From: Escherichia coli
GTDB taxonomy: Bacteria; Pseudomonadota; Gammaproteobacteria; Enterobacterales; Enterobacteriaceae
Length of the DNA: 64,000 nucleotides
Strand: one strand, 5' to 3'
NCBI RefSeq assembly: GCF_044324785.1
Contig: NZ_CP172127.1
A model generated the notes under the pieces. That model saw nothing but the letters and a program-made list of their open reading frames with translations, made no database searches and had not been told where the DNA came from. The position numbers and the translations under genes are program-made. Shown piece after piece: positions 5,388 to 10,740 of this stretch (within the stretch, counting starts at the first letter, position 1; every line of letters starts with the position of its first letter).

Positions 5388-6164
5388 ATGCGAAAGATTT
5401 TTCTTCCGTTGTTACTGGTGGCGCTTTCGCCTGTTGCCCATGGCGAAGGTGTGCAGGAAGTCGAGATTGATGCACCGCTCTCTGGCTGGCATCCGGCAGA
5501 GGGTGAAGATGCCAGTTTTTCACAATCGATCAATTACCCGGCGTCGTCCGTCAACATGGCAGATGATCAAAATATCTCAGCGCAGATCCGCGGCAAAATA
5601 AAGAATTATGCTGCGGCGGGTAAAGTTCAGCAGGGCCGGCTGGTGGTCAACGGTGCCAGTATGCCGCAGAGAATTGAATCCGATGGTTCTTTTGCGCGCC
5701 CTTATATTTTTACTGAAGGCAGCAACAGCGTGCAGGTCATCAGCCCGGATGGGCAAAGCCGACAAAAAATGCAGTTTTACTCAACGCCGGGTGCTGGAGT
5801 GATCCGCGCGCGTTTACGGCTGGTTCTCTCCTGGGATACGGACAATACCGACCTCGATCTTCACGTTGTCACACCTGATGGCGAACACGCTTGGTACGGT
5901 AACACCGTGCTGAAAAACAGTGGTGCACTGGATATGGATGTCACGACGGGGTATGGACCCGAGATTTTCGCCATGCCAGCGCCAGTTCACGGGCGCTATC
6001 AGGTGTATATCAACTACTATGGTGGGCGCAGCGAAACGGAATTGACGACCGCCCAACTGACGCTGATTACCGATGAAGGATCGGTCAATGAGAAACAGGA
6101 AACTTTCATTGTACCGATGCGTAATGCTGGCGAGTTGACGCTGGTGAAAAGTTTTGACTGGTGA
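5388..6164 (+). CDS. yfaP: YfaP-family secreted protein (function unknown), 258 aa
   Basis: 258-aa ORF with signal peptide (MRKIFLPLLLVALSPVAHG), 4 bp downstream of yfaQ. Size and synteny match yfaP. Confidence 0.7.
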   Translation: MRKIFLPLLLVALSPVAHGEGVQEVEIDAPLSGWHPAEGEDASFSQSINYPASSVNMADDQNISAQIRGKIKNYAAAGKVQQGRLVVNGASMPQRIESDGSFARPYIFTEGSNSVQVISPDGQSRQKMQFYSTPGAGVIRARLRLVLSWDTDNTDLDLHVVTPDGEHAWYGNTVLKNSGALDMDVTTGYGPEIFAMPAPVHGRYQVYINYYGGRSETELTTAQLTLITDEGSVNEKQETFIVPMRNAGELTLVKSFDW

Positions 6165-6438
6165 GCCATCCTTTCACACAACCTGGCTCTCTCTTTTTTC
6201 AGATAAGACTGCTGGGCGATCTGCCGACGCCAGGATATAACCATTAACAAGCGTCGGCAGATTGGTCATTTCTTGTTGTTCGTACGGAAAACTGTCCATT
6301 TACTCCGGCTTTCCTGATTAAGGCAATGGTTTCTAAGCGATACGCATTATTGCAATGGTGACAGAACATTGCGGTAACACGCTTTTACCGCTACCTTAAC
6401 CACACTCCATCGGTCACCTGAGGCGGAGCTTCGCCCCT

Positions 6439-9288
6439 TTGAAATACCTTGCTTCTTTTCGTACAACCCTGAAAGCCTCGCGCTACATGTTCAGAGCATT
6501 GGCGTTAGTGCTCTGGCTGTTGATTGCTTTTTCATCCGTTTTTTACATCGTTAATGCGTTACATCAGCGAGAATCGGAAATTCGTCAGGAATTTAATCTG
6601 AGTTCCGATCAGGCTCAGCGCTTTATTCAACGCACCTCTGATGTGATGAAAGAGCTGAAGTACATCGCCGAAAATCGCTTATCGGCAGAAAACGGTGTGC
6701 TTTCCCCGCGTGGACGAGAAACGCAGACGGATGTGCCTGCGTTTGAACCGCTGTTTGCTGACTCTGATTGTTCCGCAATGAGTAACACCTGGCGAGGTTC
6801 TTTGGAGTCATTGGCGTGGTTTATGCGCTACTGGCGCGATAATTTTTCTGCGGCTTACGATCTCAACCGGGTATTTTTAATCGGCAGCGATAACCTCTGC
6901 ATGGCCAATTTCGGTCTGCGTGATATGCCAGTGGAACGCGATACCGCGTTGAAAGCGTTGCATGAACGCATCAATAAATATCGAAATGCACCACAAGACG
7001 ATAGCGGCAGTAACCTCTACTGGATCAGCGAAGGTCCGCGCCCTGGCGTCGGGTATTTTTACGCGTTGACGCCAGTTTATCTGGCGAACCGGTTGCAGGC
7101 GCTTTTGGGTGTCGAGCAGACCATCCGGATGGAGAACTTTTTCTTACCTGGTACGTTGCCGATGGGGGTTACCATTCTTGATGAAAATGGTCATACCCTG
7201 ATTTCGCTTACCGGACCAGAAAGCAAAATTAAGGGCGATCCTCGCTGGATGCAGGAACGCTCCTGGTTTGGCTATACGGAAGGTTTCCGGGAGCTGGTGC
7301 TGAAGAAAAATCTGCCACCCTCATCGCTAAGCATCGTGTATTCGGTGCCGGTTGATAAGGTGCTGGAACGCATTCGCATGTTGATCCTTAACGCAATTTT
7401 GCTGAATGTGCTTGCCGGAGCTGCATTGTTTACTCTCGCGCGGATGTACGAGCGACGTATTTTCATTCCGGCGGAAAGCGATGCCCTGCGGCTGGAAGAA
7501 CATGAGCAGTTTAATCGCAAGATTGTCGCCTCCGCGCCAGTAGGTATCTGCATTTTACGTACCGCTGATGGCGTCAATATTTTAAGTAACGAACTGGCGC
7601 ATACCTATCTCAATATGCTTACGCATGAGGATCGCCAACGACTGACGCAAATTATCTGTGGGCAGCAGGTCAATTTTGTTGATGTCCTGACCAGCAACAA
7701 TACCAATCTGCAAATCAGCTTCGTCCATTCGCGCTATCGTAATGAAAACGTGGCCATTTGTGTGCTGGTGGATGTTTCTTCGCGCGTGAAGATGGAAGAG
7801 TCGTTGCAGGAGATGGCACAAGCAGCGGAACAGGCGAGCCAGTCAAAATCGATGTTCCTTGCCACCGTCAGTCATGAGCTGCGAACGCCGCTGTATGGCA
7901 TTATCGGTAACCTGGATCTGTTGCAAACCAAAGAGTTACCGAAAGGCGTCGATCGTCTGGTGACGGCAATGAACAACTCTTCCAGCCTGTTGTTGAAAAT
8001 TATCAGCGATATTCTCGATTTCTCGAAAATTGAATCAGAACAGTTGAAGATCGAACCGCGTGAGTTTTCACCGCGTGAAGTGATGAACCACATCACCGCC
8101 AACTATTTACCGCTGGTGGTACGCAAGCAGCTAGGCTTGTACTGCTTTATTGAACCGGATGTGCCAGTGGCCTTAAATGGCGACCCGATGCGTTTACAGC
8201 AGGTCATCTCCAACCTGTTGAGTAACGCCATAAAATTCACCGATACCGGCTGTATAGTTTTGCATGTTCGCGCTGATGGCGATTATCTCTCTATCCGTGT
8301 TCGCGATACCGGCGTGGGGATTCCGGCGAAAGAAGTGGTGCGCTTGTTTGATCCCTTCTTCCAGGTCGGAACGGGCGTACAGCGTAACTTCCAGGGGACC
8401 GGTCTGGGGCTGGCGATTTGTGAAAAACTGATCAGCATGATGGACGGCGACATCTCGGTAGATTCAGAACCGGGAATGGGCAGCCAGTTTACCGTGCGTA
8501 TTCCGTTGTACGGCGCTCAGTACCCGCAGAAAAAAGGCGTGGAAGGGTTGAGTGGTAAACGCTGCTGGCTGGCGGTCCGCAATGCGTCGCTCTGTCAGTT
8601 CCTGGAAACCAGTTTGCAGCGCAGCGGCATCGTCGTTACAACATACGAAGGGCAGGAACCGACTCCCGAAGATGTGTTAATCACTGACGAGGTAGTGAGC
8701 CAAAAATGGCAGGGTAGAGCGGTAGTGACCTTCTGTCGTCGCCATATTGGTATTCCGCTGGAGAAAGCGCCAGGGGAGTGGGTACACAGTGTGGCTGCCC
8801 CGCATGAGCTACCGGCATTGTTGGCGCGTATTTATTTGATCGAGATGGAGAGCGATGATCCTGCTAACGCTCTGCCGTCGACGGACAAAGCGGTCAGCGA
8901 TAACGACGATATGATGATTCTGGTCGTGGATGATCATCCGATTAACCGGCGTCTTCTGGCAGATCAGTTGGGATCGTTGGGCTATCAATGTAAAACCGCG
9001 AATGATGGCGTCGATGCGCTTAATGTACTTAGCAAGAATCATATTGATATCGTGCTTAGCGACGTCAACATGCCAAATATGGATGGTTACCGCTTGACGC
9101 AACGCATTCGTCAGTTGGGACTGACGTTGCCGGTAATCGGAGTAACTGCTAATGCGTTGGCTGAAGAGAAGCAGCGGTGTCTGGAGTCCGGTATGGACAG
9201 CTGCCTGTCGAAGCCGGTAACGCTGGATGTGATAAAACAGACGCTGACGGTATATGCCGAGAGGGTCAGGAAATCGCGGGAATCGTAG
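6439..9288 (+). CDS. rcsC: Rcs phosphorelay hybrid sensor histidine kinase RcsC, 949 aa
   Basis: N-terminus MKYLASFRTTLK, two TM segments, HisKA H-box (ATVSHELRTPLYGI), HATPase_c and a C-terminal receiver (LVVDDHPINRRL...DVNMPNMDG). 949 aa as in E. coli RcsC. Apparent TTG start. Confidence 0.93.
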   Translation: MKYLASFRTTLKASRYMFRALALVLWLLIAFSSVFYIVNALHQRESEIRQEFNLSSDQAQRFIQRTSDVMKELKYIAENRLSAENGVLSPRGRETQTDVPAFEPLFADSDCSAMSNTWRGSLESLAWFMRYWRDNFSAAYDLNRVFLIGSDNLCMANFGLRDMPVERDTALKALHERINKYRNAPQDDSGSNLYWISEGPRPGVGYFYALTPVYLANRLQALLGVEQTIRMENFFLPGTLPMGVTILDENGHTLISLTGPESKIKGDPRWMQERSWFGYTEGFRELVLKKNLPPSSLSIVYSVPVDKVLERIRMLILNAILLNVLAGAALFTLARMYERRIFIPAESDALRLEEHEQFNRKIVASAPVGICILRTADGVNILSNELAHTYLNMLTHEDRQRLTQIICGQQVNFVDVLTSNNTNLQISFVHSRYRNENVAICVLVDVSSRVKMEESLQEMAQAAEQASQSKSMFLATVSHELRTPLYGIIGNLDLLQTKELPKGVDRLVTAMNNSSSLLLKIISDILDFSKIESEQLKIEPREFSPREVMNHITANYLPLVVRKQLGLYCFIEPDVPVALNGDPMRLQQVISNLLSNAIKFTDTGCIVLHVRADGDYLSIRVRDTGVGIPAKEVVRLFDPFFQVGTGVQRNFQGTGLGLAICEKLISMMDGDISVDSEPGMGSQFTVRIPLYGAQYPQKKGVEGLSGKRCWLAVRNASLCQFLETSLQRSGIVVTTYEGQEPTPEDVLITDEVVSQKWQGRAVVTFCRRHIGIPLEKAPGEWVHSVAAPHELPALLARIYLIEMESDDPANALPSTDKAVSDNDDMMILVVDDHPINRRLLADQLGSLGYQCKTANDGVDALNVLSKNHIDIVLSDVNMPNMDGYRLTQRIRQLGLTLPVIGVTANALAEEKQRCLESGMDSCLSKPVTLDVIKQTLTVYAERVRKSRES

Positions 9289-9306: not shown

Positions 9307-9331
9307 TGAACTGCACCCCAAATGTTGGACA
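9307..9331. repeat. IS left terminal inverted repeat
   Basis: Begins TG...; 21 of 25 positions match the reverse complement of the right end. Confidence 0.75.
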
Positions 9332-9357
9332 TAATCTGACATCTGAAGGTGCAGTTT

Positions 9358-9879
9358 ATGAAACATTCATTTGAAGTAAAACTTGCCGCTGTAAATCATT
9401 ACCTGGCTGGTCATGCAGGCATCATTTCTACGGCAAAACTCTTTCAACTTTCTCACACCAGCCTCTCACACTGGATTAATCTTTTTCTTCTTCACGGTCC
9501 TCGGGCACTGGATTGCAGACACAAGCGTAGCTATTCTCCTGAAGATAAACTTTGCGTGGTTCTTTATGCTCTCGGGCATTCTGAGTCTCTACCCCGGGTA
9601 GCTGCCCGGTTTAACATTCCCAGCCACAACACGGTTAAAAACTGGATAAAAGGCTACCGCAAATCTGGTAATGAGGCCTTTATCAGGCGCAGGAAGGAGA
9701 AAAGCATGACCCGTTCTGATGATACCCATGAAAACGAGGCAAACATGACGCCGGAAGAGATGAAGAATGAGCTGCGTTATCTTCGCGCAGAAAATGCATA
9801 TCTGAAAGCCATGCAGGAGCATCTCCTGGAAAAAAAGCGCCAGGAGCTGGAGAAAAAACGAAAGTCATCCGGAGCCTGA
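9358..9879 (+). CDS. IS3-family transposase OrfA (HTH DNA-binding / leucine-zipper part)
   Basis: MKHSFEVKLAAVNHY... with a helix-turn-helix region and a C-terminal coiled-coil (LRYLRAENAYLKAMQEHLLEKKR) typical of IS3-family OrfA. The ORF track starts at GTG 9349; ATG at 9358 is the more likely start. Confidence 0.8.
   Translation: MKHSFEVKLAAVNHYLAGHAGIISTAKLFQLSHTSLSHWINLFLLHGPRALDCRHKRSYSPEDKLCVVLYALGHSESLPRVAARFNIPSHNTVKNWIKGYRKSGNEAFIRRRKEKSMTRSDDTHENEANMTPEEMKNELRYLRAENAYLKAMQEHLLEKKRQELEKKRKSSGA
9831..9837 (+). other. Candidate -1 programmed ribosomal frameshift heptamer A_AAA_AAG
   Basis: In the orfA frame the codons read gaA AAA AAG. orfB (stop at 10704-10706) is in the -1 frame relative to orfA, as in IS3-family OrfAB fusions. 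Confidence 0.6.
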
Positions 9880-9983
9880 GGTGCGGACACTGCCAGTCTG
9901 ACCTGTTAAAGGCTGCAGGGCTGGCCAGAAGCACGCTGTACTACCAGCTGTCACTGCAGAAGGCTAAGGACAAGTATGCTGAT

Positions 9984-10740
<757 letters not shown>

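Follow-up and report, generated by a model that had tools for sequence, protein, structure and literature searches.

In Escherichia coli K-12 (MG1655), the genes run in the order rcsC, atoS, atoC, atoD, atoA, atoE, atoB, yfaP and the rcsC-yfaP interval measures 7490 bp, whereas in the 64-kb stretch of E. coli DNA analysed here (the window) the same two genes are 274 bp apart. Does such a short interval represent an ancestral site that never received the ato operon, or the scar left by its deletion? The sequence-only reading that drew attention to the locus assumed a K-12 gene order, rcsC-atoSCDAEB-yfaP, which proved to be right, and left both answers standing. We addressed the question by comparing the spacer with K-12, with 5426 complete E. 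coli genomes and with other Escherichia species.

The yfaP-rcsC junction and its parts

The features of the locus, with the evidence on which each was delineated, are listed below.

5388-6164, plus strand: yfaP (DUF2135), the final gene of the yfa (alpha-2-macroglobulin) cluster; ORF list, Pfam PF09906, 96.3% identity to K-12 up to 6164
6165-6189, no strand: putative junction or filler of the deletion, 25 bp, not alignable to K-12
6174-6299, minus strand: ORF of 41 codons (MDSFPYEQQEMTNLPTLVNGYILASADRPAVLSEKRESQVV, plus stop) running through the atoS remnant; translation
6189-6269, minus strand: probable decayed 5' coding remnant of atoS, equivalent to AtoS residues 23-49; blastn, alignment and tblastn
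6219-6230 and 6251-6262, no strand: perfect 12-bp inverted repeat with a 20-nt loop, inside the atoS remnant
6300-6353, minus strand: probable decayed former leader/promoter region of atoS; weak K-12 alignment with an 11-bp gap
6354-6438, plus strand: rcsC-proximal 85 bp of the rcsC-atoS intergenic region; 100% identity to K-12
6439-9288, plus strand: rcsC, intact, 949 aa; ORF list, RcsC, HisKA, HATPase and REC domains

Both gene boundaries given by the sequence-only reading stand, namely the yfaP stop at 6164 and the rcsC start at 6439 (a TTG codon, the same in the window and in K-12), but the spacer between them, 6165-6438, had been given as 275 bp and is one base pair shorter. The claim that no ato operon separates the two genes also holds: tblastn with the six K-12 Ato proteins found no ato gene in the spacer or in the whole 64-kb window, the only strong matches being to the paralogous kinase and receiver domains within rcsC. 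Homology to K-12 covers yfaP, ends exactly at its TGA stop (6164) and restarts at 6318, 121 bp upstream of rcsC. The last 85 bp before rcsC, presumably its promoter and 5' UTR, keep 96-98% identity in other Escherichia species (a difference of 2-4%). A terminator-like hairpin, GCGGTAAAAGCGTGTTACCGC followed by AATGTTCTGT, is found at 6371-6391 on the minus strand (the atoS sense), within this fully conserved rcsC-proximal part. Scanning 6000-6600 revealed neither a promoter-like site nor a plus-strand terminator in the spacer.

On the other side of rcsC, between this gene and rcsB, lies a copy of IS1397 (IS3 family; 1432 bp, 9307-10738), with orfA at 9349-9879 and orfB at 9984-10706. The element interrupts the loop of a REP palindromic unit, being preceded by GGCGTTTAC and followed by TTACGCC, with TTAC apparently duplicated; the rcsC-rcsB interval of K-12 has two BIME copies and no IS.

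The sequence-only reading further stated that the spacer has no ato-like coding sequence, which is wrong in detail, as a 27-codon remnant of the 5' part of atoS, which inspection by eye would miss, occupies 6269-6189 on the minus strand. By blastn, window positions 6190-6257 match atoS nt 79-145 with 78% identity (E=8e-9), on the strand and in the order expected for an atoS gene diverging from rcsC, and colinear with the retained intergenic region. Translated in frame, the remnant reads MTNLPTLVNGYILASADRPAVLSEKRE where AtoS 23-49 reads MVIVPTLTIGYIVETEGRSAVLSEKEK; 14 of the 27 residues are identical by tblastn, the common ones including PTL..GYI......AVLSEK, and tblastn gave no AtoS-specific match elsewhere in the window. 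In the alignment to K-12, a gap of 52 bp corresponds to approximately codons 6-22 of atoS, and the atoS start codon aligns to ACG.

A functional atoS would be an ORF of about 608 aa encoding PAS, HisKA and HATPase_c domains, of which about 27 codons are left here. Homologues of AtoS, down to 54% overall identity, show hardly any variation in the segment PTLxIGYIVETEGRSAVLSEKEKKLS; in the remnant, the conserved IGYIVETEGRS has become NGYILASADRP, with non-conservative changes at invariant residues. The signs of relaxed constraint thus comprise the lost start codon, the 52-bp and 11-bp gaps, the changes at invariant residues and stops in the sequences of strain EDL933 and of E. whittamii, all this in a sequence whose homology to atoS is in the native position and orientation, as in a deletion scar or pseudogene remnant. 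A divergent working allele of atoS was also considered and rejected: among diverse AtoS N-termini none is closer to the remnant than that of K-12, and the divergent atoS of Escherichia sp. GCA_004745155 matches it at 75%, against 78% for K-12 atoS. Given the changes at conserved AtoS positions, 6189-6269 is a decayed pseudogene fragment of atoS and not a divergent working allele.

Since the spacer keeps both rcsC-atoS intergenic DNA and a colinear, in-frame fragment of atoS, and a never-occupied site would hold neither, the choice left by the sequence-only reading falls on a deletion scar. We consider it very probable that an old deletion of about 7.2 kb encompassing ato left the spacer as its scar, that the spacer still carries a decayed remnant and exists as a standing allele, and that the inverted repeat and the ORF are by-products of decay. 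The deletion would have taken atoS from about codon 49 on, then atoC, atoD, atoA, atoE, atoB and the atoB/yfaP bidirectional terminator. What it would have left, leftward from rcsC on the minus strand, is the intact 85 bp, the decayed atoS leader, the decayed atoS 5' fragment and about 25 bp of filler.

The filler (6165-6189) stands where K-12 has a 73-bp atoB-yfaP spacer with the bidirectional terminator (AAAACACCCGATAACTTTCGCTATCGGGTGTTTTT), which sequence comparison shows to be absent from the window. It is traceable to no K-12 sequence and displays 45-65% mismatch among scar-bearing species. Alignment to K-12, which the sequence-only reading had recommended for finding breakpoints and flanking repeats, located the atoS edge of the remnant, and inspection of the K-12, window and E. 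whittamii sequences revealed no repeat or microhomology at either breakpoint. The junction is too decayed for the mechanism (microhomology, IS or other) to be deduced from it, and the untraceable filler obscures the yfaP-side breakpoint.

The inverted repeat, the conserved block and the minus-strand ORF

The inverted repeat noticed in the sequence-only reading has its arms, CTGCCGACGC at 6221-6230 and GCGTCGGCAG at 6251-6260, exactly where they were claimed, and its perfect stem actually extends to 12 bp; in RNA form, 6219-6262 has about 14 pairs. In 2000 dinucleotide-preserving shuffles of the spacer, a perfect repeat of at least 12 bp was never obtained and one of at least 10 bp was obtained in 10, and a perfect 12-bp palindrome is very unlikely to arise by chance. 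The whole window contains five perfect inverted repeats of this length or more. Within an 86-nt context the hairpin reaches -30.7 kcal/mol (z -3.3). At the same site in K-12 atoS only 5 of the 12 positions pair, and the hairpin is absent from the functional gene.

E. whittamii and Escherichia sp. GCA_004745145 carry the same scar, colinear throughout, at 90.7% and 87.1% identity, respectively. The comparison among species involves five distinct scar sequences from three species. A 27-nt block at 6192-6218 (TCTTTTTTCAGATAAGACTGCTGGGCG) is almost invariant across these three, and 20 of its nucleotides are identical to functional atoS. Divergence between species amounts to 4-14% in this block and the hairpin versus 16-27% in the neighbouring scar DNA (16-24% in the former atoS leader, 6300-6353), a level of conservation that would not be predicted by pure neutral decay.

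One explanation is that the core 6192-6218 and the hairpin 6219-6262 have been co-opted as a partial terminator, a 3'-end stabiliser or an insulator shielding rcsC from transcription of the yfa operon. With the ato genes gone, the yfa operon runs straight towards rcsC in the same direction and the original terminator no longer separates them, so that transcription of the two might in principle become coupled. That the scar supplies a replacement terminator or insulator is conceivable because the lost atoB/yfaP terminator was the only canonical one between the yfa operon and rcsC; no canonical plus-strand terminator is found between yfaP and rcsC in the window. Consistent with such a role are the folding energy of a hairpin unexpected by chance and absent from functional atoS, the reduced divergence of the core, and the U-rich stretch (AUUGGUCAUUUCUUGUUGUU) that follows the hairpin on the plus strand. 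The scar hairpin indeed resembles the intrinsic terminator of K-12 atoB/yfaP in having a strong GC-rich stem downstream of a stop codon and then a U-rich stretch. It differs from intrinsic terminators, which we defined by a GC-rich stem, a loop of 3-8 nt and a run of at least five T within 8 nt after the stem, in that its loop of 20 nt is un-terminator-like, its U-tract is interrupted and its stem is not kept in relatives; the scan makes no plus-strand terminator call in 6165-6438.

The comparison among species likewise argues against co-option. No compensatory change was seen in the hairpin among the five distinct scar alleles, and 6 of the 12 pairs are broken in at least one of E. whittamii, Escherichia sp. 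GCA_004745145 and SM107, by unpaired positions only. A search of 5900-6700 against Rfam with E up to 10 returned two chance miRNA matches only (best E>5), so that the hairpin has neither the compensatory changes nor the curated family that characterize a conserved structured RNA. The best-conserved block lies upstream of the hairpin and not at the U-tract, in what is a very small sample of scar sequences. Unlike repeated extragenic palindromes (REP/BIME), which occur in many copies, the scar is present at no more than two places per genome. We regard a co-opted core as unlikely; it is in any case an addition to the deletion scar and does not replace it.

Neutral decay of the atoS fragment is the most likely source of the 12-bp repeat. 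Template switching that "corrects" quasi-palindromes, a process of mutation described in E. coli, may provide an alternative origin, as no selection would then be needed for a perfect 12-bp palindrome to appear in non-functional DNA. The remnant and K-12 atoS differ by 20 substitutions, 10 of which fall in the 24 arm positions, each of these 10 increasing pairing. The difference from this mechanism is that K-12 atoS, with 5 of 12 positions pairing, offers no quasi-palindrome here, and the enrichment in the arms is marginal.

The ORF that crosses the remnant on the minus strand (6299-6174) could be taken to encode a functional small protein derived from the AtoS N-terminus: it is open in the window allele, has a good Shine-Dalgarno (GGAG 5 nt upstream of the ATG) and is annotated by PGAP as a hypothetical protein in one genome, R32_14_1F. 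A stop nevertheless interrupts it at codon 9 in the majority allele (EDL933, SM107, SE11-type) and in E. whittamii, where the shorter ORF from an internal ATG is broken too, and the 41-codon ORF does not begin at the ancestral start codon of atoS, whose counterpart in the window is ACG. A functional product is thus highly improbable, and the ORF is most likely fortuitous, a further by-product of neutral decay.

Direction, age and distribution of the change

Could the yfaP-rcsC site never have held ato, the K-12 lineage having acquired it by insertion? Outside Escherichia (Superficieibacter, Citrobacter youngae, Enterobacillus), neither ato nor rcsC is detectable beside yfaP by blastn, the operon is mobile enough to be carried by the LAA island (PMC5539235), and it appears to have been exchanged between species, all of which would suit a gain. 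A never-occupied junction would be free of ato-derived sequence, but the spacer has the colinear in-frame atoS fragment together with the atoS-side half of the intergenic region; moreover, the AtoS segment concerned is conserved in the homologues of other genera and so was not made from local sequence at insertion. We give very little credence to an ancestral empty site.

The deletion scar, queried as window 6165-6355, was found in 1541 of the 5426 complete E. coli genomes (~28%), always on the chromosome and with a median of one copy and a maximum of two per genome. Carriers include O157:H7 EDL933, O104:H4, SE11 and PCN033. The window allele is 100% identical to that of PCN033 and reaches at least 99% identity in 51 genomes, while the majority allele (O157:H7/SE11-type) has 96.3% identity to it. 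DNA of the ato operon is present in 3932 of the 5426 genomes, and those free of the scar mostly carry ato; the sum of 1541 and 3932 exceeds 5426, which means that a minimum of 47 genomes contain ato DNA as well as the scar. One ato match in this collection is on a plasmid.

The contig search across genomes yielded 17 loci, among which E. fergusonii, E. marmotae and E. ruysiae are not represented. Two divergent YfaP clusters (P0079 and P0086) considered as outgroups were dropped, both being frameshift-ridden ato-positive E. coli assemblies. Whereas Escherichia sp. GCA_004745145 bears the scar, its sister genome GCA_004745155 has the ato operon. Most sub-regions of the scar diverge by 16-27% between species, compared with 21-41% at the 4-fold sites of yfaP/rcsC; with divergence near the 4-fold-site level, the ato deletion would either predate the diversification of E. 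coli or have crossed species borders.

A recent strain-specific deletion, be it a private mutation or an adaptation to laboratory or host, is scarcely credible despite the independent recent losses at this locus in PCP06171, MOD1-EC7003 and BS-04, since the breakpoints seen in the window recur unchanged in two other species and in the 1541 E. coli genomes, which represent several lineages, and since a remnant that differs from atoS by 22%, and by indels as well, has accumulated far more change than a recent event would allow. The scar is instead a standing allele.

The three other losses differ from it in structure. In Escherichia sp. MOD1-EC7003 (locus L004, 10784-11535), atoS nt 1-302, with 96% identity to K-12, is joined to atoB nt 1063-1185, and REP-like sequences lie between yfaP and the atoB remnant. 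In E. coli PCP06171 (locus L033, 2501-4155), an IS1A truncates atoS at nt 417 and bounds a deletion that extends from there through ato and yfaP into yfaQ. In E. coli BS-04 (locus L022), the common scar has been shortened further.

Several observations point to recombination around the locus. Identity to K-12 falls from 100% to <70% at window position 6354, and the 5' end of rcsC in the window is 99.8% identical to that of an ato-positive strain. In E. albertii (loci L025 and L027, 10851-18101), the ato genes have 96-99% identity to K-12 whereas yfaP and rcsC have 90% and 87% identity, respectively, to the E. coli copies of the window, a contrast that suggests a recent exchange of ato between species. 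Escherichia sp. GCA_004745155 (locus L031, 10851-18096) harbors a second ato haplotype of great divergence and mosaic structure, its identities to K-12 being 75% for atoS, 77% for atoC, 84% for atoD, 83% for atoE, 90% for atoA and 95% for atoB. From these comparisons we infer that scar and ato alleles appear to have been exchanged among lineages; homologous recombination in the flanking genes would be the vehicle.

Over the first 25 kb of the window (1-25000), the best match among the 5426 complete E. coli genomes reaches only 97.8-97.9%, and single segments of this region show 99.8-100% identity to differing strains. The region may be a mosaic; alternatively, the isolate may come from a lineage of which few genomes have been sampled.

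One may go further and picture scar and ato as a long-lived trans-species polymorphism, kept up or repeatedly exchanged by recombination and perhaps by niche-dependent selection on the use of short-chain fatty acids, with a functional core of about 70 nt acting for instance as a terminator or insulator; this combination we view as rather improbable.

Metabolic meaning and comparison with known systems

The sequence-only reading expected the strain to be unable to grow on acetoacetate via Ato. The absence of ato is established for the 64-kb window, and the phenotype is conditional on the rest of the genome. Provided that there is no second copy, the cell would be devoid of the AtoSC regulator, the AtoDA CoA-transferase, the AtoE transporter and the AtoB thiolase, and is predicted not to use acetoacetate, butyrate, valerate or short-chain fatty acids via AtoDAEB, the Ato route for acetoacetate and short-chain fatty acids being that of Pauli and Overath 1972 and Jenkins and Nunn 1987, as cited in PMC9602453. 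A second copy, atoSC-atoDAEB, is carried in some strains by the LAA pathogenicity island adjoining pheV (PMC5539235, PMC6174562, PMC9729726), and the at least 47 genomes with both scar and ato DNA are consistent with this island copy at pheV. A base-rate estimate from the two counts, 1541 and 3932, would leave roughly 97% of the scar-bearing genomes without any ato DNA. Beyond strain typing and metabolic prediction, the deletion scar matters little; its age and its spread over species would make the locus a neat illustration of how recombination in flanking DNA can carry the presence or absence of a whole operon from one species to another.

The closest known system is the published polymorphism of ato itself, an accessory operon whose prevalence differs by >50% between E. 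coli phylogroups A and B1 (PMC9602453). The locus is the same: ato is absent in many B1 and O157:H7-type strains and present in K-12 and phylogroup A, and our counts on 5426 genomes reproduce this presence/absence polymorphism. Variable presence of ato in E. coli is therefore already published, and the scar is an ordinary gene-content difference. The difference lies in the junction, as the atoS 5' remnant, the common breakpoints and the occurrence in E. whittamii and another Escherichia are not described there. In the searchable literature we found no description of the yfaP-rcsC junction and no paper naming yfaP, rcsC and atoS together, and papers matching both atoS and O157 either dealt with the copy on the LAA island or had no bearing on the locus.

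Decayed gene remnants at conserved backbone junctions are routine in comparative genomics. Perna et al. 2001 are said to have described K-12-specific "K-islands" that are missing from O157:H7. Scars of the K-island type resemble the one analysed here: at a conserved backbone junction with recombined flanks, a short stretch that is decayed or unrelated stands in for a block of K-12 genes. The ato scar differs from them in that the direction of loss can be read from the atoS remnant, and in that the allele would be older than the species.
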